Shown in pieces: positions 83 through 32,529 of a stretch of DNA of 32,529 bases. Made by a program: the position numbers and the translations under genes. A model generated the notes under the pieces. That model was given only the letters and a program-made list of their open reading frames with translations. It was not told the origin of the DNA and did not search any database. This DNA comes from an uncultured Steroidobacteraceae bacterium (GTDB lineage Bacteria; Chloroflexota; Limnocylindria; QHBO01), in the NCBI GenBank assembly GCA_964452225.1, contig CAYVLM010000001.1, forward strand, positions 11,810 through 44,338, written 5' to 3'. Each line of letters opens with the position of its first letter. Position 1 is the stretch's first letter.

Positions 83-1270
83 GTGCCCATGCGCAGGTTT
101 TTGAGAGTCGGTGGCGGGATCCTCGTCTCGCTCGGGGTGGTTCTGGCGGCCTGTTCCAGCGGTGGCAGCTCGCCCAGCGCGGTCACCTCCGCGACGGCCG
201 TCGCGAGCCAGGCAGCCATGAGCGAGGCGCCATCGACGAGCCCGGCATCCACGCTGAAGATCGGCGTGGTGACCGATGTCGGAACGATCAACGACAAGAA
301 CTTCAACGAGTACACGTACAAGGGCGCACAGGCCGGCGCGCAGGACCTTGGCGAGTCCAGCGACGTCCCGTACGCGGTCCCGAAGGACGCGTCGGAGTAC
401 GCCAGCCTGATCCAGAACTTCGTCAGCCAGCAGTTCGACATCATCGTGACCACCGGGTTCAACCTGACGGCCGAGACGATCAAGGCGGCGAAGGCCAACC
501 CGGACATCTGGTTCATCGGCGTTGACCAGGCTCCCATCTGCATCGACTCGACGGGCGCACCTGCCACGGACAACTGCGCGAGCGACCCGGCGACGATACT
601 GCCGCACTACGTGGCCCTCGGCTTCGAGGAGGACCAGGCCGGCTACCTGGCCGGGATCGTCGCCGCGGCGATGAGCAAGACCGGCACCATCGGCGCCATT
701 GGCGGTATCACCATCTGCGCGCCCTGCGTTCGCTACATCCAGGGCTATGAGCTCGGCGCGAAGTCCTACAACCCGAACATCGTGGTCAAGACCGCGTACA
801 TCACGACGAGCGACTTCACCAAGGCGTTCGCCGACCCGGTGACCGGCAAGACCTTCGCGACGCAGTTCATCGCCGCGAACCACCCGGACGTGCTCTTCCA
901 GGTGGCCGGCAACACCGGCAACGGGATCCTCGACGCCGCGTGCGACGCGAACATCTATGCGGTCGGGGTGGACGTCGACCAGTACCTGTCGTATCCAAAT
1001 GCCGACAAGTGCATCATCACGAGCGCCGAGAAACACCTGTCGGTGGCCGTGGAGGACACCATCAAGGCCATAGCCGCGGGAACCCAGCAAGCCGGGGACG
1101 CGCACTACGACGCGACCAACGACGGCATCGGGGTCTCCGACTTCCACGACAAGGCGAGCCTGATCCCGTCCGACGTCCAGGGCAAGCTTGACGCGGCCCT
1201 GGCGGGCATGAAGGATGGCTCGGTCGTCACCTGCCCGCCTGCCCCCCAGTGCGGGGCTCCGCCCAGCTGA
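83..1270 (+). CDS. BMP-family (PnrA/Med-like) ABC transporter substrate-binding lipoprotein, probably nucleoside-binding
   Basis: Signal peptide plus lipobox (VLAAC|SS). Family-typical stretches include KIGVVTDVGTINDKNFNE, DIWFIGVDQ and GFEEDQAGYLAG. It is followed by its cognate ATPase and two permeases. The start is ambiguous: GTG 56, GTG 83 (GGAGGG 8 nt upstream) or ATG 89. Confidence 0.9.
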   Translation: MPMRRFLRVGGGILVSLGVVLAACSSGGSSPSAVTSATAVASQAAMSEAPSTSPASTLKIGVVTDVGTINDKNFNEYTYKGAQAGAQDLGESSDVPYAVPKDASEYASLIQNFVSQQFDIIVTTGFNLTAETIKAAKANPDIWFIGVDQAPICIDSTGAPATDNCASDPATILPHYVALGFEEDQAGYLAGIVAAAMSKTGTIGAIGGITICAPCVRYIQGYELGAKSYNPNIVVKTAYITTSDFTKAFADPVTGKTFATQFIAANHPDVLFQVAGNTGNGILDAACDANIYAVGVDVDQYLSYPNADKCIITSAEKHLSVAVEDTIKAIAAGTQQAGDAHYDATNDGIGVSDFHDKASLIPSDVQGKLDAALAGMKDGSVVTCPPAPQCGAPPS

Positions 1271-5219: not shown

Positions 5220-5984
5220 TCAGCCCGCCTCGCCCGCCGGCGGCTCGGCCGCCTCGGTCCCCTCCGGCCCGATCGGGTGTGACACGGGCGGAACTTTCAG
5301 CAGATCCATCGGGAGCCCCGCGGCCGCCAGGTCGCTGGCCGCGCTCATCGAGTCGTAGTCGACTGAGCGGAAGCCAATGGCCAGGTCCGGCTGACCGAGG
5401 TAGATCACGGCGTAGCGGGCCCGGGCGTGGGCTCCGCAGCCGACTGACCCGCACGCCACGAAGTGCGCCTGCCCCACCAGCTTGTGCACCGTTTCGTGGG
5501 TGTGTCCGAAGCAGAACAGGTCATCTCCCGCGTCCGAGGCGATCCGCGCGAAGGTACGGGATGGCCGGTCGGCCCACAGGTACTCGGTCTGCTTGATCGG
5601 CGTGCCGTGAAAGAGCAGGATGCTGCGCCCCTCGGCCGACAGGCGCAGGGTCACCGGCAGCTGGCGCAGCCAGGCCCGATGCTCATCGCTGACCGTCCGC
5701 ACGGTCCAGTCGAGCGAGGCCCGCCCTGCCGCCTCATCCGCCTCGGTGGCCCAGATGGCGCCCGCCTGCTCGCGGCCCATCCCCACCGCTTCGTCCCAGT
5801 TGCCCTGGACGGTCGCAATGCCCAGGTCCCGGACCGTGGCGATCACCTCGTTCGGATGAGGTCCGCGTCCCACGAGGTCGCCGGCGCACCAGATCGCGTC
5901 GCAGCCGATGGCGGCGATGTCGGCGAGCACGGCCCGCAGCGCGGGCAGGTTGCCGTGGACGTCTGTGATGACAGCGATTCGCAT
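5220..5984 (-). CDS. Metallophosphoesterase family protein (YfcE/MJ0936-like)
   Basis: All calcineurin-like phosphoesterase motifs are present in order: VITDVHGN, CAGDLVGRGP, GNWDE, LFHGTP, FGHTHE. Confidence 0.9.
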   Translation of the reverse strand: MRIAVITDVHGNLPALRAVLADIAAIGCDAIWCAGDLVGRGPHPNEVIATVRDLGIATVQGNWDEAVGMGREQAGAIWATEADEAAGRASLDWTVRTVSDEHRAWLRQLPVTLRLSAEGRSILLFHGTPIKQTEYLWADRPSRTFARIASDAGDDLFCFGHTHETVHKLVGQAHFVACGSVGCGAHARARYAVIYLGQPDLAIGFRSVDYDSMSAASDLAAAGLPMDLLKVPPVSHPIGPEGTEAAEPPAGEAG

Positions 5985-11202: not shown

Positions 11203-13284
11203 TCAGGAACCGGCGAGCTGGGCGACCTGGGCGCGAACGGTTGCCGGGTCGTTGGTCGGCGCCTCGCACGCATAGCCACGGCAGACGTAGGCGGTCGCCC
11301 GCCCCCCGCGCGGCCGCTTCCCGGCGAGCACCGGCCACTCGTCCGGGGTGTCCCATGTGTCGCCGGCGGTCGGAGCGCTCACCACCACGAGATCCGGCGC
11401 ATACGGCCCCAGCGCCGCGGATCGCAGGGCCTCGGCGCCCGGATCGTTGGGGCTCGCCCCCGCGATGACCGCGTCAATGGGGTCGCTGAGCGCCCGGTCA
11501 ACCGCGCACAGCATCCGGCCGAAGAGCGTCGGCTGCCGCTCCAGGGCAGGTCCGACGGCGCGCAGGATGCTGCGCGCCCGCCGATCGTGGCTTGGATCGG
11601 CGGTGACGAGGGCCAGTCGCTGCAGCAGATCGGCCGCGACGGCGTTCCCGGAGGGCGTGGCGGCATCGACGAGTGAGCGCGGACGCGCGACGAGGACGTC
11701 GTGCTCCGCCGACGTGTCCCAGAAGGTCCCGGAGCCGGCGTCCCAGAAGTCGGCCACGGCCCGCTCCACGAGCGATTGCGCGAGCAGCAGGTCGTCGACC
11801 CGTCCGCTCGCGGCATGGGCGGCCAGCAGCCCGTCTGCCAGGCAGACGTAGTCCTCCAGGAAGCCTGGCGTGTGGCCGCGCCCGTCCCGGGCCGTGCGCC
11901 AGACTCCGCCGTCGGCGCGCACGAGGACGGTGCGGATGAAGGCGACCAGCCGATCGGCGGCTGCCAGCAGCTCCGGGCGTCCGAGCGCGGCGCCGGCCTC
12001 GGCGAGCGAGCGCAGCAGCAGGCCGTTCCAGGCGGCGAGCTGCTTGCCGTCGCGTGCGGGCCGGACACGCTCCTCGCGCGCCCGGGCCAGCGAGGCACGC
12101 GCGCGCGCGAGCAGCGCCGCCGGCGGCAGCTCGGCTCCGGCGCTGAGGATCGAGCGTCCCTCCCAGTTGCCCTGCGGGGTCACGCCCCAGTGGGCGGCCA
12201 CCGCATCCACCTCCCCGGCGCCAAGACCGTCCGCGGCCAGGACGGATCTGAGCTCTGCATCGGTCCAGGTGTAGAAGCGCCCCTCCTCGCCTTCCGAGTC
12301 CGCGTCGAGCGCGGAGGCATAGCCCCCGTCGGGGGTCTCCAGCTCGCGGACCACGAAGGCGAGGGTCGATTCGACCACCGCCCTGTACTGCTCCTGGCCG
12401 GTGGCACGCCAGGCCTCGAGGTAGGCATGCGCCAGGAGCGCGTTGTCGTAGAGCATCTTCTCGAAGTGCGGCACCAGCCAGCGCGCATCGGTGCTGTAGC
12501 GGGCAAAGCCACCGCCCACCTGGTCGCAGATGCCGCCGTGGGCCATGGCATCCAGGGTCGTGGTGACCATCGCCAGGGTTGCCGGATCGTGCGAGCGACG
12601 CCAGGCCCGCAGCAGGAACTCAAGCACCATCGGGGCCGGGAACTTGGGCGCCGGGCCGAACCCGCCGAATCGCGGGTCGAAGGTGGCGGCCAGGTGCCGG
12701 ACGGCACCCTCCACGATCGTGGTCCCCGGGTCATGGTCCCCCGGCGGCACCGCGAGCTGCTCCCGGAGGTGCGCGGACAGCCGGCTGCCCTGCGCCGTCA
12801 CCTCCCCCCGGCGGGTTCGGTACGCTTCTGCCACCGCGGAGAGCACCCGGCGAAACCCGGGCATCCCGTGCGCGTCCTCCGGTGGGAAGTAGGTCCCGCC
12901 GAAGAACGGGTCGAGATCGGGCGTCAGGAAGACCGACATCGGCCAGCCGCCGGAGCCGGTCATCGCCTGCACCGCGGCCATGTAGATCTCGTCGATGTCG
13001 GGGCGCTCCTCGCGATCGACCTTGATCGAGACGAACTCACGGTTGAGAAGCGCGGCCGTCTCGGCGTCGGTGAACGACTCGCGCTCCATGACGTGGCACC
13101 AGTGGCAGGCCGCGTACCCGACGGAGAGGAAGATCGGGCGGTCCTGTTTCCGGGCGTGCTCGAGCGCCTCGGGGCCCCACGGGTACCAGTCGACCGGGTT
13201 GTGCGCGTGTTGGAGGAGGTACGGGCTCGTCTCACCGGCGAGCCTGTTGGCGGGGATCTCCTCGGCCGGGCCTGGACTGCGCAT
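11203..13284 (-). CDS. Thioredoxin-domain protein of the DUF255/YyaL (SSP411-like) family
   Basis: N-terminal [18 protein letters not shown] and [17 protein letters not shown] (Trx-like CxxC), followed by a long alpha/alpha-barrel-like region typical of the family. Confidence 0.92.
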
Positions 13285-24228: not shown

Positions 24229-24309
24229 CGGCGGCCATTCTACGCATGGACACGGTGGAGGCCCGCCCCTCCACTCGGAGAGAGACGGGCCTCGCGCGCG
24301 GGACGGGCG

Positions 24310-24468
24310 TCAGCGTGAGCGGCGAAGTCGCGGGAGGGCCAGGTGCAGGACCCGGTTGCGGCGGCGGATGCCGGTGTCGCGGAACCGGGGCTCCTTGGCC
24401 TCATCGCCCAGCTCGAGCTGATGGAGTCCGCCGCCGATTCCGTAGTAGACGGACGAGCTCTTGTACAT
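24310..24468 (-). CDS. Unannotated 52-aa basic small protein (hypothetical)
   Basis: ATG is preceded by AGGAAG about 5 nt upstream. The product is MYKSSSVYYGIGGGLHQLELGDEAKEPRFRDTGIRRRNRVLHLALPRLRRSR. Nearly all codons end in G/C, as in the flanking genes. It falls below the 60-aa cutoff of the ORF track. Confidence 0.4.
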   Translation of the reverse strand: MYKSSSVYYGIGGGLHQLELGDEAKEPRFRDTGIRRRNRVLHLALPRLRRSR

Positions 24469-24493
24469 TGGTGCTTCCTGACTCTTTCGTGAG

Positions 24494-24514
24494 CCGGCGT
24501 CCCCGGGACGCCGG
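24494..24514 (-). terminator. Perfect 9-bp GC stem-loop between the two small ORFs (attenuator or terminator candidate)
   Basis: CCGGCGTCC-ccg-GGACGCCGG. There is no U-tract, which is common in high-GC genomes. A second hairpin, GTGGAGG-N6-CCTCCAC at 24255-24274, sits between small ORF 2 and polX. Confidence 0.4.
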
Positions 24515-24527
24515 AATGGTGCGTGCT

Positions 24528-24638
24528 TCAGATGGATCGGACCGGCCGGTCCTGGATCATTGGGCGAGAGTCGGCTCCCGCACGAACCGCTGCCAGGTCC
24601 AACGTGACCAGCAGCAGCAGGATGACGAGCAGTGCCAT
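24528..24638 (-). CDS. Unannotated 36-aa hydrophobic peptide (leader peptide or small membrane protein candidate)
   Basis: ATG 24638 has GGAG 6 nt upstream. The product is MALLVILLLLVTLDLAAVRAGADSRPMIQDRPVRSI. GC3 is about 77%. It is the first ORF downstream of the near-consensus promoter. Confidence 0.3.
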   Translation of the reverse strand: MALLVILLLLVTLDLAAVRAGADSRPMIQDRPVRSI

Positions 24639-24640
24639 TG

Positions 24641-24662
24641 GTGACTCCGATGTGACTCCGAT
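24641..24662. repeat. Perfect 11-nt tandem duplication GTGACTCCGAT x2, duplicating the SD on the minus strand
   Basis: Positions 24641-24651 and 24652-24662 are identical. The minus strand reads ATCGGAGTCAC ATCGGAGTCAC CA ATG. Confidence 0.9.
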
Positions 24663-24670
24663 CCCGGTTG

Positions 24671-24757
24671 TGTAACTGGTTATGGCTTACTTGGTGGTTA
24701 CAGCGTGACTATAGCCGAGGGGCTGTAACTTGTCAACAGCCGTATACTGGTTACAGC
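24671..24757. promoter_or_regulatory. Phased operator-like repeats: two TGTAAC-N20-GTTACA units 53 bp apart
   Basis: TGTAAC is at 24671-76 and 24724-29. The 10-nt TGGTTACAGC is identical at 24695-24704 and 24748-24757. The inner arms GTTACAGC (24697-24704) and GCTGTAAC (24722-24729) also form an inverted repeat bracketing the minus-strand -10. Confidence 0.45.
24708..24736 (-). promoter_or_regulatory. Near-consensus sigma-70-type promoter TTGACA-N17-TATAGT reading toward the small ORFs and polX
   Basis: On the minus strand, TTGACA is at 24736-24731, the spacer is exactly 17 nt, and TATAGT is at 24713-24708. The region is locally AT-rich in a 70% GC genome. Confidence 0.55.
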
Positions 24758-24758
24758 A

Positions 24759-25400
24759 ATGACTGTGAGCGTCGATCCCACCCCCGAGCCCGAGCGGGCA
24801 TCCGACCTGTTCGTCGACTTCGCGAACACGCTCTCCTTCGATCACGGTGAGCCGATCGAGGGGCTGCCGGACACGGATGCGCTCCTCACCTGGCTCCGGC
24901 AGCACGAGCTGCTCAGCGACCGCGCACGGGCAGCAGAGGCGCATCGGCTGGCGCACAGTCCGGCGGAGGCCGCCCGACGCATGGAGCGCTTCCGTTACCT
25001 TCGCAGCCTCCTCCAGGAGATGGCAGGGCGCCTGGGGCGCGGCGATCTCCCGACGCGGGAGGAGCTCCGCCGGCTGAACCACATCCTCAAGCACGGCCTG
25101 CACTACCACCAGCTGGAGGCCGAGGCGGACGGCGCCCGCTACTCCCTGGCGCAGGTCGGGGACCGTCTTGACCAGGCACGCGCCGCCATCGCCGGCTCGT
25201 TCGCCTACTTCCTGGCGGAGGGCGATCCGTCACGGCTGCGGGTCTGCGCCAACGACGGCTGCCGGGAGGTCTTCGTCGACCGCTCCCCCACCGGGCGCCG
25301 GCGCTGGTGCACGATGCGTGTCTGCGGCAACCAGGCGAAGGTGGCCCGCCACCGGGCCCGGCAGCGTTCGCATCTTCCGGTGGAGGCCGGGGCCGACTAG
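24759..25400 (+). CDS. CGNR zinc-finger (ABATE/DUF1470, COG5516) putative transcriptional regulator
   Basis: C-terminal LRVCANDGCREVFVDRSPTGRRRWCTMRVCGNQAKVARHRARQR (zf-CGNR) after an ABATE-like N-domain (FVDFANT...). There is no SD. TATACT ends 10 nt upstream of the ATG, which suggests a near-leaderless transcript. Confidence 0.88.
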   Translation: MTVSVDPTPEPERASDLFVDFANTLSFDHGEPIEGLPDTDALLTWLRQHELLSDRARAAEAHRLAHSPAEAARRMERFRYLRSLLQEMAGRLGRGDLPTREELRRLNHILKHGLHYHQLEAEADGARYSLAQVGDRLDQARAAIAGSFAYFLAEGDPSRLRVCANDGCREVFVDRSPTGRRRWCTMRVCGNQAKVARHRARQRSHLPVEAGAD

Positions 25401-25628
25401 AATATCCGCGGCTCGACGGCATCCGCCATCGGCCGATCAAGCCCGCAACGAGGCCGCAGCACAGCACCCGTGGACGCCGGTTCCTGTAGACCCGAACCAC
25501 GCGCGCGCTCCGGACGCCCGGATCGCAGCAGGATGAGCGCCTAGCGACGACGCTGACGCGACCGTCCTCGCGATCCCGACCACCCGCGCGCGCCACCGCA
25601 GCAGACGCGACAGCGAGGTGGTCGTTCC

Positions 25629-26897
25629 ATGCTCTTCCTGAGCCAGCTCATCGGCAAGCCGGTCCTGGACCGGGTCGGCGAGCCCTTCGGCAGGGTCCGC
25701 GACCTGATCGTGGCCCTCGGTGAGCAGTACCCGCCGGTCACGGGCCTCGTGGTGCGCGTCACGGGCGGACGGGAGATCTTCCTGCCCTGGAGCGACGTTG
25801 AGGAGATCGACCGGGCCGGCGCCCGACTCCACACCTCGAGCATCGACATCACCAGCTTTCGCCAGCGCCCGAACGAGATCCGCCTCTGGCTCGACCTGCA
25901 GGACAAGCAGATCGTGGACGTCGAGGGGCGCAAGATCGTGCGCGTCAACGATATCCAGCTGGCGCCGGTCCGCGGGCGCCTGCGCCTGATGGCGGTCGAC
26001 GTCGGGCTGGCGGGCATCCTCCGCCGGCTGGGACTCTCTGGCCCCGGAGAGCGGCTGGCACGTGCCCTCCGGCTTCCGATCGAGAACTACATCGAGTGGG
26101 AGGACGTCGATCCGGTCGAGTCAAGCGTCAGCTCGCTGAAGCTGCGCGTGCCGCACCAGGCGCTCGCCACCCTGCACCCGGCCGACGTGGCGCACATCGT
26201 GGAGCAGCTGGCGCCGCGCGATCGGACCGGGATCCTGGCTTCCCTCGACGACGAGCGAGCAGCGGACGTCATCGAGGAGCTCTCAGCGGAGGACCAGGTG
26301 GACGTGCTCGAGGCGCTGCCGCCGGAGACTGCCGCCGACATCCTCGAGGAGATGGGTCCCGATGACGCCGCCGACCTGCTCGCCGACCTCTCCGAGGAGC
26401 GTCAGCGTGAGCTCCTGGGGCTCATGGAGCCGGACGAGGCCAACGAGGTCCGCGAGCTGCTCACCTACGGCGAGGAGACGGCCGGCGGCCTGATGACCAC
26501 CGACTTCATCACCGTGGGCCGGGACGAGACCGCGCAGCAGATCATCGACCGTCTTCGGGAGCTTCGCCCGGATGCGGACCAGGCCTACTACCTGTACGTC
26601 ACCGATGCCGACGGCATCCTGGTCGGCACCATCACCCTGCGCGGGCTGATCATCGCCGACCCAGAGACCTCCATCGCCGACTTCACGCGTCCCGATCCGA
26701 TCTCGGTCACGGTCGAGACCGATGCCGACGAGGTCGCCCGGGCCATCGCACGCTACAACCTCCTCGCGCTGCCGGTCGTCGACGACGAGGGCCATCTCCA
26801 GGGCGTGGTCACCGTTGACGACGCCATGGAGCGCGCGCTGGGCGAGGAGTGGCGCAAGCGCCTTCCCGAGCTCTTCGAACCGGTCGAGGAGAAGTGA
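25629..26897 (+). CDS. Soluble PRC-barrel + MgtE N-domain + CBS-pair protein (MgtE cytoplasmic sensor module without the membrane pore)
   Basis: N-terminal PRC-barrel-like LIGKPVLDRVGEPFGRVRDLIV. MgtE_N acidic helices (HPADVAHIVEQL...DVLEALPPETAADILEEMGPDDAADLLADL). Tandem CBS (GGLMTTDFITV..., LLALPVVDDEGHLQGVVTVDD). It ends without TM helices. GAGGTGG SD lies 7 nt before the ATG. Confidence 0.88.
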   Translation: MLFLSQLIGKPVLDRVGEPFGRVRDLIVALGEQYPPVTGLVVRVTGGREIFLPWSDVEEIDRAGARLHTSSIDITSFRQRPNEIRLWLDLQDKQIVDVEGRKIVRVNDIQLAPVRGRLRLMAVDVGLAGILRRLGLSGPGERLARALRLPIENYIEWEDVDPVESSVSSLKLRVPHQALATLHPADVAHIVEQLAPRDRTGILASLDDERAADVIEELSAEDQVDVLEALPPETAADILEEMGPDDAADLLADLSEERQRELLGLMEPDEANEVRELLTYGEETAGGLMTTDFITVGRDETAQQIIDRLRELRPDADQAYYLYVTDADGILVGTITLRGLIIADPETSIADFTRPDPISVTVETDADEVARAIARYNLLALPVVDDEGHLQGVVTVDDAMERALGEEWRKRLPELFEPVEEK

Positions 26898-28204
26898 CCC
26901 GGCTCGCCGTTCCTCGCCCGATCAGGCGCGCGCAGCGATCGCTCCGCGATCGGCTGCCGAACTTCCGCACCCATCGCACCGGCATCCTCGCCTTCCTCGG
27001 GGTCATGGGGCCGGGCCTCATCGCGGGCCTGGCCGGCAACGACGCCGGCGGGATCTTCACCTACTCGGTGCTCGGCGCCCAGACCGGGCTGCAGCTCCTG
27101 TGGATCCTGCCGATCACGACGGTGATGCTGATCATCGTCCTCGAGATGGCGGCGCGCATGGGCGCCGTCTCGGGACAGGGGCTCGGCGACCTGATCCGCG
27201 ACGACTTCGGCATCCGTTGGACCCTCTTCGCCATGGTCGTCCTGCTCATCGCCAACGGCTCGAACATCGCCGCCGAGTTCGCCGGCGCGGCGGCAGCGCT
27301 CGAGATCTTCGCCGTTCCCCGCTGGATCGTGGTTCCCGTCGTGGCGGCCGGCATCTGGGCCCTCGTCGTGTTCGCGAGCTACCGGGTCGTCGAGCGTGTC
27401 TTCCTGTCGGTCGCGGTCGTCTTCATCGCCTATGTGGTCAGCGCCTTCGTGGCCGGCCCGGACTGGGGACGGGTCGGGAGCGCACTGGTGACGCCCCAGG
27501 TCAGCTTCGAGCCGAGCACGCTGCTGCTGATGGTGGCCACCGTGGGGACCACCGTGACCCCGTACATGTTCTTCTACCTGCAGTCATCGGTCGCAGACAA
27601 GGGGCTCGGCCCGGAGGAGCTCAACCTCGAGCGCGCCGACGCGATCCTGGGCGGGATCTGGACCAACGTGATCGCCCTGTTCATCGTGGTCGTCACCGCC
27701 GTCACCCTCTTCGGCCGCGGAATCGAGCTGCGCGACGCCGCCGATGCCGCCCAGGCGCTGGCCCCGGTCGCCGGCCGTTTCGCGGAGGCGCTCTTCGCCT
27801 TCGGCCTCTTCGGAGCTTCGGTGCTCGCAGCGACGGTGATGCCGCTGACCACCAGCTACACGGTGTGCGAGTCGTTCGGCTGGGAGTCGGGGGTGTCGCG
27901 CCGCTTCCGGGAGGCGCCGGTATTCATGGGCCTGTACACCGCGCTGATCGTGATGGGCGCGGCGGTGGTCCTCATACCCGGGATGCCCCTCACGGGGCTG
28001 ATCATCGTCAGCCAGAACCTCAACGGCATCCTGCTGCCGGTAATCCTGGTCTTCATGCTGCGCTTGGTGAACAATCCGAGGATCATGGGATCGCATACGA
28101 ACCCGACCTGGCTGAACGTCCTGGGCTGGGGACTGACCGGGCTGGTGAGCCTGCTCACCCTGGTCCTGGTGGGAAGCGCCGTGATCGGCGCCGTGACCGC
28201 CTGA
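26894..28204 (+). CDS. NRAMP/SLC11-family transporter with a non-canonical metal site (NRMT-like, probable Mg2+-type)
   Basis: GPGLIAGLAGNDAGGIFTYSVLGAQTG (TM1) and VGTTVTPYMFFYLQSS (TM6) align to the NRAMP DPGN and MPH motifs but read DAGG and TPY. About 11 TM helices. GTG 26894 overlaps the upstream stop (GTGA); an alternative GTG is at 26849. Confidence 0.9.
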   Translation: MTRLAVPRPIRRAQRSLRDRLPNFRTHRTGILAFLGVMGPGLIAGLAGNDAGGIFTYSVLGAQTGLQLLWILPITTVMLIIVLEMAARMGAVSGQGLGDLIRDDFGIRWTLFAMVVLLIANGSNIAAEFAGAAAALEIFAVPRWIVVPVVAAGIWALVVFASYRVVERVFLSVAVVFIAYVVSAFVAGPDWGRVGSALVTPQVSFEPSTLLLMVATVGTTVTPYMFFYLQSSVADKGLGPEELNLERADAILGGIWTNVIALFIVVVTAVTLFGRGIELRDAADAAQALAPVAGRFAEALFAFGLFGASVLAATVMPLTTSYTVCESFGWESGVSRRFREAPVFMGLYTALIVMGAAVVLIPGMPLTGLIIVSQNLNGILLPVILVFMLRLVNNPRIMGSHTNPTWLNVLGWGLTGLVSLLTLVLVGSAVIGAVTA

Positions 28205-29238
28205 TGAAGCCGCGCCCCCCGCTGGTCGGGCCGCTGAGCGGGGTCCGGTCGCTGCCCATGCGGCTGCGCCGGCCGGTCAAGACCGCGAGCGGGGAGGGCG
28301 GCGAGGAACCAACCCTCGAGCCGCACCCCGAGGTGGTGGAGGCGCCGGGGCTGCGCTGGATCGACGTCGAGCGCCCACGCCTCGCAGATCGGCTCTGGCT
28401 CGCGGAGAACTTCGGCTTCCACGAGCTCGACCTGGAAGACGTCGCCAGCCACAACCAGCGTCCCAAGCTGGACGCCTACGACGAGTACATCTTCGTGGTC
28501 GTGCAGTTTCCGAGCTTCGACCCCGAGACCAGCCGTCTCGACGCCGTCGAGCTCGACGTGTTCATGGGTCCGGACTACCTGATCACCCTCCCCAACGAGC
28601 CCATTCCGCCGCTGCGCGCCCTCTTCGAGCGGGCGCAGGGCCGCGAGGAGGTCCGTGCCGAGGTCATGGCCAACGGCTCCGGTCGCCTCCTGTACGAGAT
28701 TCTCGACCGATGCGTGGACGCCTCCTTCCCGATGCTGTCGCAGATCGGTCGCAAGCTGCGCCGCATCGAGAACGACATCTTCGAGGGCCGAAGCGGGGAG
28801 GTCGTCCGCGACATCAGCAACGCCAAGCAGGAGATCATCAACTTCCGGGCCGTGATCCGCCCGCAGCGGGTGGTCTTCCACGATCTCGAGCGCGCGAAGC
28901 AGCGCTACCTCCCGGAGGACCTCGACGTCTACTTCGACGACCTGACCGATGCCTCCGAGCGCATCTGGGACATGCTCGAGAACTTCAAGGAGATCGTCGA
29001 GGGGCTCGAGGACACCAACGAGTCGGTGCTCTCCCATCGGCTCAACGACGTGCTGCGCATCCTCACCGCGGTCACGGTGATCCTCCTGCCCCTCACCCTG
29101 GTGACCGGCTTCTTCGGCATGAACGTGGGATTCCCCGGCGAGCCGCGGGCGCCCGCCTACTTCTGGGGCATCGTGATCGCCATGGCGATCATGCTCGTCG
29201 CCCTGGTGGTCTTCTTCCGGAGGCGCGGCTGGCTGTAG
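28204..29238 (+). CDS. corA: CorA-family Mg2+/Co2+ transporter
   Basis: Two C-terminal TM helices with the signature FFGMNVGFPG (GMN). The cytoplasmic domain is typical (LRWIDVERP..., FHELDLEDV). TGATG overlap with the NRAMP gene stop. Confidence 0.9.
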   Translation: MKPRPPLVGPLSGVRSLPMRLRRPVKTASGEGGEEPTLEPHPEVVEAPGLRWIDVERPRLADRLWLAENFGFHELDLEDVASHNQRPKLDAYDEYIFVVVQFPSFDPETSRLDAVELDVFMGPDYLITLPNEPIPPLRALFERAQGREEVRAEVMANGSGRLLYEILDRCVDASFPMLSQIGRKLRRIENDIFEGRSGEVVRDISNAKQEIINFRAVIRPQRVVFHDLERAKQRYLPEDLDVYFDDLTDASERIWDMLENFKEIVEGLEDTNESVLSHRLNDVLRILTAVTVILLPLTLVTGFFGMNVGFPGEPRAPAYFWGIVIAMAIMLVALVVFFRRRGWL

Positions 29239-29373
29239 TCCGACCGACCGTCGGTCCAAGAATACGCACGCGGACAGCCACCCCCGGGCCGATGGTCACG
29301 ATCGACCGATCTGGATGGCCCGTTCGCCGCATGGGGTCTTGACAAGCCGGCAGTTGCGTGGGAGCCTCAGGCT

Positions 29374-29406
29374 GCACATATGTGCGTCATGATGCTCAAT
29401 TGTGCG
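29374..29406. promoter_or_regulatory. Perfect 12-nt palindrome GCACATATGTGC plus a direct repeat of its 3' half (TGTGCG) 20 nt downstream: candidate SorC/DeoR operator
   Basis: The palindrome is at 29374-29385. TGTGCG occurs at 29381-86 and 29401-06. The site is in an AT-richer patch just upstream of the regulator gene, and a TTGACA lies at 29339-44. Confidence 0.4.
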
Positions 29407-29437
29407 AGCTGAACGGAGACAGGACGGCTTGCTGACG

Positions 29438-30409
29438 ATGACGGGCCGGCGGACCAGCAGCAGCGACGTGCGCCAGATGGTGCGCATCACGCAGCTCTAC
29501 TACCGCATGCACCTCAGCCAGGAGCAGATCGGCGAGCGCCTCGGCCTCAGCCGCTTCCAGGTCGGCCGGCTCCTGGCCCGGGCGCTGCGCGAGGACATCG
29601 TCAAGATCGAGATCCGGCACCCTGTCGCCCGCCTGATCGAGCTCGAGGATGCCCTCGCCGAGCGGTTCGGTCTCGGGACAGCCGTCGTCGTGGACGTCCC
29701 GACGTCGACCTCCGAGAAGGCGGCCGAGCAGCTCGCCCGCGAGGCCGTCGCGGGCGCCGCGGTGCGCTTCCTCGCCGACCTCCACCCGAACGGCTCGATC
29801 GGAGTCTCCTGGGGGCGGACGATGCTCGAGCTGGCGCGCCAGCTCGAATCTGGCTGGACGAGCGCCACCGAGGTCGTCCAGCTGAACGGCGCTACCTCCC
29901 TTTCGGCCGAGCCGACGCGTGCCAACGAGATCGCGGAGCGGTTCGGCGCGACGACCGGGGCCGCGATCCGGATGCTCGCCGCGCCGGCGATCGTGGGCAG
30001 CCCGGCGCTGCGGCGAGCACTCGAGGATGACCCCTCGGTCGGAGCGACGATCGAGGCTGCCCGAGCCACCGCGACCGCGATCTTCTCCCTCGGCGTCCTG
30101 ACCCCGCAGAGCGTCCTCGTCGGCTCGGGCTTTCTCACCCCCGGGGACGTGGCGGATCTCCGGGCGGCGGGCGCGGTGGGCGACATCATCGGCCGCTTCC
30201 TGCGCGTGGACGGCGCCACCGCCTCGCTGGAGCTGGACCAGCGGACCGTGGGGCTTCCCCTTGCTGACCTGGCCGCCAAGCCGATCTCGATCGGCGTGGC
30301 GGCGGGCGCCGGCCGCGGGCCGATCTCGCTGGGCGCGCTGCGCGGCCGCTACCGCAACGTCCTGATCGCCGACGCCGACACGGCGCAGTGGGTGATCGAC
30401 CATGGCTGA
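29438..30409 (+). CDS. SorC/DeoR(Bsu)-family sugar-phosphate-binding transcriptional regulator
   Basis: N-terminal HTH (MVRITQLYYRMHLSQEQIGERLGLSRFQVGRLLARALREDIVKIEI) followed by a sugar-phosphate-binding domain (GVSWGRTM..., QLNG). Start is uncertain (GTG 29402, ATG 29438, ATG 29477). Confidence 0.88.
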   Translation: MTGRRTSSSDVRQMVRITQLYYRMHLSQEQIGERLGLSRFQVGRLLARALREDIVKIEIRHPVARLIELEDALAERFGLGTAVVVDVPTSTSEKAAEQLAREAVAGAAVRFLADLHPNGSIGVSWGRTMLELARQLESGWTSATEVVQLNGATSLSAEPTRANEIAERFGATTGAAIRMLAAPAIVGSPALRRALEDDPSVGATIEAARATATAIFSLGVLTPQSVLVGSGFLTPGDVADLRAAGAVGDIIGRFLRVDGATASLELDQRTVGLPLADLAAKPISIGVAAGAGRGPISLGALRGRYRNVLIADADTAQWVIDHG

Positions 30410-31070
30410 GCGCATCGTGCCGAGTGAAGAGCTGGTCCGGCAGCTGGTGGAGCGCGCGCTGGACAGGCAGGTGGCCTCGGACACCCGCGAGGGGACGGGC
30501 GCCAGCGAGTTGACGGCGCCGGCTACCCCGGGAGACCCCCCAACTCCCATCGTGCCGACCGCGGCCGCGGCCCCCGGGGCGGCGGCCGGCGGCGGGCGAA
30601 CCGTCGCGATCGGCGCCGACCACGGCGGCTACCTGCTCAAGCAGGCCCTCGCGAAGGCACTGTCCGACAAGGGCTACGCCGTGACCGACTGCGGCACCAC
30701 GTCCACCGAGACTGTCGATTACCCGGACTTCGCATATGCCGTTGCCCGACTCGTGGCGGACGGGGCGTGCACCTACGGGATCGTCGTCGACGGGGCGGGC
30801 ATCGGATCCGCGATCGTGGCCAACAAGGTGCCCGGCGTCCGGGCCGCCAATGCCCACGACACCTCCATGGCCCGTAACGCCCGCGAGCACAACTACGCCA
30901 ACGTGCTGACCCTCGGCGCTCGGATGATCGGCGAGGGGCTCGCGCTCGAGGTCGCGGACACCTTCCTTGCCATCCCCTGGGGCGCGGAGCGCCACGGCAA
31001 GCGGGTGGCCAAGATCACGGCCATCGAACGGCAATACCTCCGAACGCTACCTGAGGACCAGGACGCATGA
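30402..31070 (+). CDS. rpiB: Ribose-5-phosphate isomerase B (RpiB/LacAB family) with a roughly 65-aa N-terminal extension
   Basis: The core is [14 protein letters not shown]...DCG...VDYPDFA...[24 protein letters not shown]...[18 protein letters not shown]. The extension holds an amphipathic helix ([16 protein letters not shown]) plus a Pro/Ala/Gly linker. 8-nt overlap with the regulator gene. Confidence 0.92.
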
Positions 31071-31921
31071 CGATGCTGCCCGACACCCGGGACCTGCTGA
31101 TCGAGGCCGTCACCCGCGAGGTGCTGACGGCACTGTCATCCGGCGACACCTGCGGCCAGTGCGGCGGCTCGTGCGCCGCCCACTCGCCCGACAAGGTGCG
31201 CGAGGTCGTGACCAATGGCGCGTCGCGGATCGCCTACCGCGGTCGGGGCGGCGACGTCCCGCGTGACCTGGCCCCGTATATCGACCACACGCTGCTCAGG
31301 CCGGACGCCACCGCCGGGGACATCGACGAGCTGTGCGACGAGGCGATCGAGTACCGCTTCGCGGCCGTGTGCATCAACCCGACCTGGGTCCGCCGGGCGG
31401 CGGACCGGGTCCGGGGCACCGGCGTGGCGGTCGCCTCGGTGATCGGCTTTCCGTTCGGCGCCAGCACCCCCGAGGTCAAGGCGCTCGAGGCTCGCCGAGC
31501 GATCCGCGACGGCGCGCGTGAGATCGACATGGTGATCAACATCGGCGCCCTCAAGAGCGGCATGCACGACCAGGTCCGGGAGGACATCGAGCGGGTCTCC
31601 GATGCCTGCCACGAGTCGGGTGCATTGAACAAGGTGATCATCGAGGCCGCGCTGCTCTCCGACGAGGAGAAGGTGATCGCCTGCCACCTGGCCAAGGAGG
31701 CCAGGGCCGACTTCGTCAAGACCTCGACCGGCTACGCGTCGGGCGGCGCGACCGTGTACGACGTCGCCCTGATGCGCGAAACGGTCGGCCCGCGAATGGG
31801 CGTCAAGGCGGCCGGGGGGATCCGGACGACCGAGGACGCGCAGGACATGATCGCCGCCGGCGCGACCCGGATCGGGGCCTCGGCGGGGATCAGGATCGTG
31901 AGTGGAGAGGGGCGCGCATGA
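31067..31921 (+). CDS. deoC: Deoxyribose-phosphate aldolase (DERA) with a roughly 65-aa N-terminal extension
   Basis: [38 protein letters not shown] (Schiff-base Lys) and GVKAAGGIR. The extension holds the helix [16 protein letters not shown] and the motif [15 protein letters not shown] overlap with rpiB. Confidence 0.93.
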
Positions 31922-32529
31922 GCAATATTGACCTCCGGGCGTACGTGTTCCTGGACAGCCTCCAGGCGCAGTACGCCGCGTTTCTGGGCACGGTCGCGCA
32001 GGGGTTCCTGCCGCTGGCCGGCGACGCCTCGCTGTCGGTCGAGGTCTCGCCCGGCATCGAGATCAACCGGCTGACCGACATCGCCCTCAAGTCCACCTCG
32101 GTCAAGCCCGGGATGCAGATCATCGAGCGCTACTACGGCATGCTCGAGGTCCACTCGCCGTCCCAGGCGGAGGTGCGCGCCGCGGGCGCGGCGATCCTGC
32201 GCGAGATCGGGCTCGAGGAGACGGACCGCATCAAGCCACGCGTCTTGTCAAGCCAGATCATCCGCCGGATCGACGACCATCAGGCGCAGCTGGTCAACCG
32301 CACCCGCCACGGCCAGATGCTCATCCCGGGCCAGACGCTCTACGTGCTGGAGCTTGAGCCCGCTGCCTACGCGGCGCTGGCGGCCAACGAGGCCGAGAAG
32401 GCCGCCCACATCAACATCCTCGAGGTCCGCGCGTTCGGTTCCATGGGCCGCGTCTATCTCGGGGGCGAGGAACGAGACATCGACGTCGGCTGGCGAGCGG
32501 CTCTGGCGGCGATCGAGGGGCTGGAGGGC
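31918..32529 (+). CDS. CsoS1D-like tandem-domain BMC-T microcompartment shell protein (3' end outside the window)
   Basis: I translated this by hand; it is absent from the ORF track because no stop falls in the window. The product is [60 protein letters not shown]...[42 protein letters not shown]. This closely parallels the CsoS1D pattern as I remember it ([13 protein letters not shown]...GFLP.PGD....EVSPG....TDIALK...E.EPA.Y...AANEAEKA). ATGA overlap with deoC. Confidence 0.85.

Follow-up and report, generated by a model that had tools for sequence, protein, structure and literature searches.

An MgtE-like-fragment/nrmT operon with an appended corA gene and a conserved leader in a soil Chloroflexota bacterium

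We analysed a 32,529-nucleotide (nt) stretch of DNA (contig CAYVLM010000001.1 of assembly GCA_964452225.1, forward-strand positions 11,810 to 44,338; hereafter the window) from an uncultured bacterium placed by GTDB in the Chloroflexota, whose proteins have matches named Candidatus Limnocylindria, and examined three consecutive plus-strand genes in it, which we label A (a soluble MgtE-like protein), B (an NRMT-type member of the NRAMP superfamily) and C (a CorA channel). As a whole, this arrangement is best explained as an Mg2+-uptake operon of soil Chloroflexota that consists of an MgtE-like fragment gene and nrmT, to which corA has been added, in which A brakes NRMT and expression is controlled from the leader; we regard this explanation as reasonably probable. 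The core of the operon is a known system. Shin et al. (2014, PLoS Genet, PMC4072509) named NrmT, noted that most nrmT genes follow the gene for an "MgtE-like fragment", and speculated that the fragment gives "cytoplasmic feedback regulation of transport", with a metal chaperone offered as the alternative; their operons from C. acetobutylicum (Ca_c0685) and A. capsulatum (ACP_2976/2977) contain the same pair in the same order and were given the same proposed feedback role. The proposal of the preliminary description of this DNA, that an MgtE-like sensor may regulate a different transporter in trans, is thus not new, having been published in 2014. What is new is the appended CorA, which is minor, the two-barrel N-terminus of A and the fusions of its module to transporters, which are descriptive, and a leader-peptide switch, which is a testable candidate. 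Among the papers searched, no later one dealt with the MgtE-like fragment, and the paper describing the EleNRMT structure (eLife, PMC8806188) passes over it.

NRMT constitutes a fourth class of bacterial Mg2+ importer and is uncoupled, so that how cells prevent Mg2+ overload becomes a question, and the MgtE-like partner has been the obvious candidate brake since 2014. In the mechanism that we propose, A would dimerise and close upon cytosolic Mg2+, as the cytosolic domain of MgtE does; closed A would dock on NRMT and throttle import, and as Mg2+ falls A would let go of NRMT again. In this way A would supply NRMT, which is uncoupled, with a feedback brake of the kind that is integral to MgtE and CorA, and CorA, needing no A partner, would merely share the transcript. 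The case for testing the partner is sharpened by the wide and tight pairing of the two genes, the retention of MgtE Mg2+ ligands in A, and the fusion of the same module to other transporters, as described below; should NRMT not be the target of the partner, what remains is a transporter operon that has been annotated correctly.

A pore-less MgtE-like protein encoded with an NRMT

Direct reading of both junctions upheld the overlaps of the three open reading frames that had been reported earlier as GTGA and TGATG. A and B (gaaGTGAcc) share four nucleotides, GTGA, the B start GTG (26894-26896) beginning one base before the A stop TGA (26895-26897); B and C (gccTGATGaag) share one, the last base of the B stop (28202-28204) being the first of the C start ATG (28204-28206). 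The GTGA overlap is conserved in all same-genus genomes and in one other genus, and the B/C overlap is found in this window only, same-genus relatives having an 8-nt gap. These overlaps may hand translation on from A to NRMT and then to CorA. An 838-amino-acid (aa) open reading frame at 26722-29238 was rejected as a gene; it is a read-through of the CorA frame in high-GC DNA (the window is ~70% GC).

We assign B to NRMT/NrmT because the four residues of its metal site match those of EleNRMT from Eggerthella lenta and because two histidines of transmembrane helix (TM) 6b are missing. The protein matches Pfam Nramp (PF01566) at an E value of 2.2e-87 over profile positions 3-355 of 357; its best PDB match is EleNRMT (7QIA, E 1.7e-111, 402 residues aligned), while ordinary MntH proteins reached only 1e-20 to 1e-25 in the same search. 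Ramanadane et al. (2022, PMC8806188) defined the EleNRMT site (7QIA/7QIC) by D55, G58, T224 and Q379, which align to the identical residues D50, G53, T219 and Q374 of B. TM1 (motif NDAGG) retains the Asp (D50) and has Gly (G53) in place of the NRAMP Asn; TM6, GTTVTPYMFFYLQ, carries the motif GTTVTPY, with T219 at the position of T224 and the metal-binding Met lost; the helix 10 Gln is Q374; and both TM6b His of proton-coupled NRAMPs, which form part of the proton path, are absent, with Tyr and Leu at those positions. The earlier call of a non-canonical NRAMP is borne out by this EleNRMT-type site. In EleNRMT, a carrier of both Mg2+ and Mn2+, transport of Mg2+ requires T224 and that of Mn2+ does so much less (PMC8806188), and by homology B should import Mg2+ in hydrated form, and Mn2+ too, with no coupling to protons. 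In the study of EleNRMT no partner protein was present, and transport by B is predicted from its sequence.

A corresponds to the cytosolic sensor half of an MgtE channel; it lacks the pore and has two additional PRC-type barrels at its N-terminus. Pfam matches to PRC (E 1.5e-11), MgtE_N (5e-29) and two CBS domains (3.9e-21) agree with the composition read earlier from the sequence, a soluble protein made of the MgtE N domain, a CBS pair and a PRC barrel. The MgtE pore domain, PF01769, which bears the Mg1 site, was absent from A in the Pfam search, and the NCBIfam mgtE model is covered at positions 24-249 of 450 only; the absence of PF01769 means that A does not qualify as an MgtE transporter, although it carries source names such as 'magnesium transporter'. 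The added PRC barrel of the preliminary description is indeed present, but an AlphaFold2 model (predicted local distance difference test score 88.8) has two beta-barrels, not one, before MgtE_N, and the feature is not specific to the soluble form. Neither PRC nor a barrel is mentioned by Shin et al. (PMC4072509).

When the model was compared with the Mg2+-bound cytosolic domain of MgtE (2YVY) using Foldseek, a template-modelling score of 0.86 was obtained, with a root-mean-square deviation of 1.9 Å and 40% identity. Mg2+ sites were mapped by HMMER alignment of A onto Thermus thermophilus MgtE with the sites listed by Maruyama et al. (2018, PMC5882242). The two proteins share the fold of the N domain and CBS pair (2YVY/2ZY9), and A retains the acidic ligands of Mg4, Mg6 and Mg7 (Table 1), D245, D249 and D398 being invariant across 79 homologues. 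Unlike T. thermophilus MgtE, A has no pore, has lost the plug-helix ligands of Mg2 and Mg3, has ~170 extra N-terminal residues that make up the two barrels, and acts in trans, if at all. The C-terminal tail of A (aa 403-422, window 26835-26894) bears a family-wide motif, LP..W..R.PR, here EEWRKRLPELF; standing at the place of the acidic plug helix of MgtE, it may be where A touches the membrane or the transporter. The PRC barrels are further candidates for the part of A that contacts NRMT.

Pairing across genomes and the proposed action of A

The pairing of A with NRMT is far more widespread and tighter than reported, extending to more than 12 phyla including archaea. A profile scan with one genome per species gave 80 loci from >12 phyla (Chloroflexota, Acidobacteriota, Nitrospirota, Firmicutes, Actinomycetota, Deltaproteobacteria, Armatimonadota, Dormibacterota, Eremiobacterota, Saccharimonadales and archaea among others), two archaea being represented. 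An NRMT gene lies directly 3' of A on the same strand at 69 of the 80, which amounts to 69 of the 76 loci with enough downstream sequence; the remaining 11 comprise 4 loci cut by contig ends and 7 true orphans beside housekeeping genes. All 69 syntenic partners have the TM1 motif DA[GSA]G and none (0/69) has DPGN, and the A stop and the NRMT start usually overlap or nearly abut. Within the Chloroflexota, 151 evenly drawn genomes were sampled, which are mutually related, so that a Fisher test on them overstates independence: 64 have an NRMT orthologue, and in 62 of these 64 a full-length A-type gene is present, with split A-like matches in the other two. At least 46 of 74 Chloroflexota NRMT genes have A directly upstream, and several further ones adjoin a long A form or are cut by contig ends. 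The juxtaposition with NRMT that the preliminary description had seen at a single locus therefore holds elsewhere, both at 69/76 loci and in 62/64 NRMT-bearing Chloroflexota genomes.

The A family is large (13,812 clusters at 50% identity, E <= 1e-3) and dominated by stand-alone proteins of 400-440 aa, and its PRC-MgtE_N-CBS module also occurs fused to membrane proteins. Four proteins of ~600 aa (P0144, P0146, P0148, P0176) join it to a genuine MgtE pore, from which it follows that a PRC-barrel-bearing MgtE subfamily exists; once (P0233, 1314 aa) it is joined to a P-type cation ATPase. In Coriobacteriales, the module is fused to a membrane segment without a Pfam match, and the gene 5' of NRMT at the loci retrieved from that order codes for such a longer, membrane-anchored form of A (L040, 616 aa). 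In a quick tree of A homologues the membrane-bearing forms cluster (5 parsimony changes, 147 tips), and the soluble A-type proteins appear to be related to the PRC-barrel-bearing MgtE subfamily. The idea that the PRC barrel is an adaptor peculiar to soluble, NRMT-linked proteins was rejected, since pore-bearing MgtE proteins and the P-type ATPase fusion carry PRC as well.

A could instead be an independent cytosolic protein that responds to Mg2+ or Mg-ATP, whether as a buffer, a metal chaperone (the alternative of Shin et al., PMC4072509) or a regulator of other targets, and that is only co-expressed with Mg2+ importers. We consider this unlikely, though it deserves to be taken seriously: in the only published test, co-expression was without effect on transport (PMC4072509), 7 of the 76 informative loci are orphans, and A homologues occur where no NRAMP gene follows, as detailed below. 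An independent role is harder to reconcile with the near-perfect co-occurrence of A and NRMT in genomes (62/64, with split A-like matches in both exceptions), with their tight stop/start linkage, which suggests a fixed protein ratio, or with the covalent fusion of the same module to two other transporter types, which argues that the module acts on transporters.

Several observations count against the explanation that we favour, in which A brakes NRMT under the control of the leader. The co-expressed A. capsulatum fragment left rescue by its transporter unchanged, and that transporter rescued an Mn2+ rather than an Mg2+ defect (PMC4072509); EleNRMT works alone in proteoliposomes (PMC8806188). 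In A itself, neither plug-helix ligand of Mg2 and Mg3 (E258, D259) is retained, and Asn stands at the position of D226. Some 40% of Chloroflexota A-type genes have no NRAMP gene after them: of 87 full-length genes, 39 lack one within 600 nt downstream, 3 of these 39 being long A forms with NRMT ~610 nt away, just beyond the cutoff; and a large metagenomic clade of A homologues (43-45% identity) stands beside unrelated AhpC/redoxin genes with no NRAMP gene nearby. These last two findings together mean that A cannot be only an NRMT subunit. As to the leader, the predicted helix at the Shine-Dalgarno (SD) sequence of A is almost invariant and consequently shows little covariation, and the minimum free energy (MFE) of the whole leader is no better than that of shuffled sequences (z = -0.74).

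Other layouts were encountered in the course of the survey. A-NRMT-A occurs once (L010), and at three loci (L032, L068, L074) A is followed by two tandem NRMT-type genes; L065 and L068 have a P-type ATPase gene downstream as well. The redoxin-linked clade (L142-L177, e.g., L163 3501-4748 and L176 3396-4748) has many members from desert-soil samples, with A situated 5' of two AhpC/redoxin-type genes; at L162, a homologue of this clade is directly 5' of a full-length MgtE gene.

CorA and the transported metal

C is an ordinary CorA channel. The Pfam CorA profile (PF01544) is matched over positions 3-292 of 292 (E 5.8e-67), the GMN motif is at aa 305-307 with hydrophobic stretches on either side, and the match to Thermotoga maritima CorA has an E value of 5e-37; the score on the NCBIfam equivalog TIGR00383 is 185.7 bits (cut-off 200.75), and that for ZntB is 59.5. 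C thus has in common with T. maritima CorA (2IUB/4I0U) the full-length profile, the GMN motif and two C-terminal TM helices, and differs from it in a 50-residue non-conserved N-terminal extension. The earlier identification of a bona fide CorA was therefore correct, whereas the dedicated three-gene unit into which it had been drawn was an over-reading, as CorA follows A-B only in this genus. The order CGNR-A-B-CorA, in which CGNR denotes the upstream gene for a putative regulator, is found in 7/7 other genomes of the genus and on 2 metagenome contigs; in the other genera of the family, and on ~30 metagenome contigs, CGNR-A-B occurs with no corA behind it, and no CorA gene was found within 6 kb of A at any of the 80 distant loci. 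CorA is a local, genus-specific addition to A-B, which also sets this operon apart from those of Shin et al., and it was rejected as a conserved third partner.

For the same reasons it is very improbable that A regulates CorA or both transporters, or that the three genes encode one obligate complex, as their co-transcription and coupling in this genus might invite one to think. CorA is missing from the distant loci, and the other genera of the family have A-B operons without it; genomes in which A-B is absent and a full-length MgtE is present contain stand-alone CorA orthologues (63-71% identity); and CorA has a Mg2+-sensing cytoplasmic domain of its own, as is established for the T. maritima protein.

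Orthologous operons point to Mg2+ as the metal concerned, by way of the Firmicutes M-box, a Mg2+ riboswitch that is frequent but not universal in front of such operons. In agreement with Shin et al. (PMC4072509), an M-box was found directly 5' of A at 4/4 Firmicutes loci scanned, in tandem at one of them, and at 0/7 non-Firmicutes loci; the tandem pair belongs to a Pelosinus metagenome-assembled genome (L070), where the riboswitches occupy 5278-5455 and 5596-5767, 5' of the A-B operon. In the window, no M-box or other known RNA matched Rfam at the gathering score, and nothing relevant was found at E <= 10 in 24300-25800.

One could also envision that the A-B pair serves Mn2+ or another transition metal, with A sensing Mn2+. 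The missing M-box would fit with this, as would the transport of Mn2+ besides Mg2+ by EleNRMT (PMC8806188) and the behaviour of the A. capsulatum homologue, likewise without an M-box, which rescued the Mn2+ defect, millimolar Mg2+ being needed for the Mg2+ strain (PMC4072509). We nevertheless consider such a role improbable. Thr219 is kept, the equivalent of the EleNRMT Thr on which Mg2+ transport depends far more than Mn2+ transport, and the pair is co-transcribed with CorA, besides which no other Mg2+ importer was found in the assembly. Moreover, the genome has a better candidate for Mn2+ import. A second NRAMP gene, cut by a contig end, is located directly 3' of a gene for a DtxR/MntR-type repressor (L004, contig C283; 623-1306 and 1303-2067); its product has an unusual TM1 (ADVDAAS instead of DPGN), and because it keeps the TM6 Met (AVIMPW) and adjoins the DtxR/MntR-type gene, it is probably the Mn2+ importer of this organism.

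The inventory on which these statements rest was made from an 88%-complete assembly. Its single CorA and its single NRMT are encoded by this operon, and one CNNM/CorC exporter is encoded elsewhere; no MgtE pore (PF01769), and no MgtA above cut-off, was found in this 88%-complete sequence. Every recognisable Mg2+ importer found in the assembly thus belongs to the operon.

The leader and the surroundings of the operon

Forty-five distinct sequences of the family (alignment A3) show strong conservation of the ~230 nt that separate a conserved TAGAAT from the start of A; this stretch occurs once per genome, 5' of A only and in this family only. A leader that acts as a signal shared by a Mg regulon was rejected, given its single copy and its absence from stand-alone CorA orthologues (G008, G009, G018). 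In TAGAAT, 5/6 positions are invariant and G3 is nearly so, and TA[GC]AAT occurs 190-250 nt 5' of the A start in 52/53 close relatives; it probably functions as a promoter element of the -10 type, with a transcription start predicted near 25410. A search for sigma-70 promoters over 24600-29500 gave a single match, on the minus strand at 24736, and no intrinsic terminators were found over the same interval. Near the 5' end, all relatives fold a hairpin at the place of P1 with quite different stems (e.g., CGATGGC/GCCATCG vs GCTCCTC/GAGGAGC).

Downstream of this hairpin, conservation of the reading frame suggests that a short upstream open reading frame (uORF) is translated. A canonical GTG-to-stop frame of 15-25 codons is present in 45/45 distinct leaders, and the distance between the anchors GTGGA and CCTAG is a multiple of 3 in 45/45, in six length classes; in an anchor-based control, in which one sequence was mis-anchored, frame 0 was open in 44/45 and the other frames in 20 and 2. 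CGAGG, the probable ribosome-binding site, precedes the GTG by exactly 16 nt in 41/45. The start of the uORF (GTG GAY GCN GGT TCC, MDAGS) is conserved, with variation in the first five codons mainly at third positions, and its end, GCC TAG, is the second of the two most conserved blocks of the leader. A riboswitch or aptamer had been considered for the leader and was dropped, because the invariant blocks, GTGGAYGCCGGTTCC and GCCTAG, are the start and the end of the conserved uORF.

Between the uORF and A, RNAalifold predicts a helix in which an anti-SD sequence pairs with the SD region of A. Across 28 distinct sequences, 97.4% of cells are paired, as compared with 19-57% when the partner columns are slid, and in the inner hairpin between the two arms both sides change at 3/6 pairs. 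The interval from the uORF stop to the anti-SD is 9-11 nt in one subgroup and 30-41 nt in others. On the MAFFT alignment RNAalifold recovered the SD helix alone, because the variable hairpins are misaligned, and no pairing alternative to the SD-masking helix was established in the leader folds.

We propose that the ~230-nt leader controls the operon. The 24-codon uORF would be translated from its GTG while the downstream anti-SD masks the ribosome-binding site of A, and the progress or stalling of the ribosome on the uORF would decide whether the anti-SD/SD helix opens, in analogy with mgtL/corL; such a switch could stand in for the M-box of the Firmicutes orthologues. Like the enterobacterial mgtA and corA operons (PMC11552253), this Mg2+ transporter operon has a short ORF in its 5' leader, and at the level of the genus the peptide has PEP or PDP followed by Arg-rich residues. 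The mgtL/corL ORFs precede mutually exclusive RNA structures, whereas what is visible here is a conserved SD-masking helix; the uORF is unrelated in sequence, starts with GTG and is followed by a predicted ribosome-binding-site mask instead of a Rho site, all of this being read here from nucleotide and peptide sequence. Nor is the pattern of Pro/acidic codons, which in mgtL/corL-type control render elongation sensitive to Mg2+, family-wide: uORFs of the genus have PEP or PDP, and other clades have RPRP. In relation to the Firmicutes operons of Shin et al., the window has the uORF and the SD-sequestering helix in place of an M-box. A more far-reaching proposal, that the leader is an undescribed Mg2+-responsive leader-peptide switch of Chloroflexota that replaces the M-box and, in addition, that PRC-MgtE_N-CBS is a portable Mg2+ sensor gating NRMT in trans and an MgtE pore or P-type ATPase in cis, is one that we put forward tentatively and think rather doubtful in its entirety. 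The uORF leader is nonetheless a concrete and easily tested candidate for Mg2+ control outside Proteobacteria and Firmicutes.

Table 1. Features of the operon, its leader and the MgtE-like protein A (nucleotide positions are those of the window; residues are those of A)
Feature	Position	Strand	Remarks
Upstream context gene	24759..25400	+	ABATE/zf-CGNR putative regulator (Pfam)
TAGAAT	25398..25403	+	-10-like promoter element (putative); overlaps TAG stop of CGNR gene here
5' hairpin P1 of leader	25410..25434	+	MFE and centroid folds
CGAGG	25449..25453	+	Probable uORF ribosome-binding site; invariant in alignment A3
uORF (putative leader peptide)	25470..25544	+	GTG start, 24 codons, MDAGSCRPEPRARSGRPDRSRMSA, TAG stop
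Anti-SD GACCACC	25578..25584	+	Predicted to pair with GGTGGTC (25617-25623) of the A ribosome-binding site
SD region of A, GAGGTGGTC	25615..25623	+	Sequestered by anti-SD (predicted)
Gene A	25629..26897	+	422 aa; soluble MgtE-like sensor protein
Gene B	26894..28204	+	GTG start; 436 aa; NRMT/NrmT (NRAMP-related Mg2+ and Mn2+ transporter, by homology)
Gene C	28204..29238	+	344 aa; CorA Mg2+/Co2+ channel; GMN at nt 29116-29124
A, PRC-type barrels	aa 1-67, 83-156		
A, MgtE_N	aa 176-283		
A, CBS pair	aa 285-404		
A, C-terminal helix	aa 407-415		
A, Mg4 site	D245/D398		T. thermophilus D91/D247
A, Mg6 site	D249		T. thermophilus D95
A, Mg7 site	D213		T. thermophilus E59
A, Mg5 site	E401		T. thermophilus D250
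A, Mg5 site	N377		T. thermophilus D226
A, Mg2 and Mg3 sites			T. thermophilus plug-helix E258, D259; not kept in A

The CGNR gene is found 5' of A throughout the genus, in genomes of two further genera and on ~40 metagenome contigs. Its presence near Mg2+ transport genes may reflect a functional link or only conserved synteny. In a related genome that has a full-length MgtE and lacks A-B, a CGNR orthologue (61% identity; L182, 3340-3909) adjoins the MgtE gene in convergent orientation. In one same-genus genome (L085, G002:C3, 2478-3780), NRMT is broken into two overlapping matches that lie in different frames (aa 1-239 and 236-434), a frameshift that represents either a pseudogene or an assembly error. 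On the 3' side of the operon, at 29402-32529, the window continues with SorC/DeoR-type regulator, RpiB-like and DeoC-like genes and the start of a microcompartment shell gene; these microcompartment-type genes are unrelated to the Mg operon.

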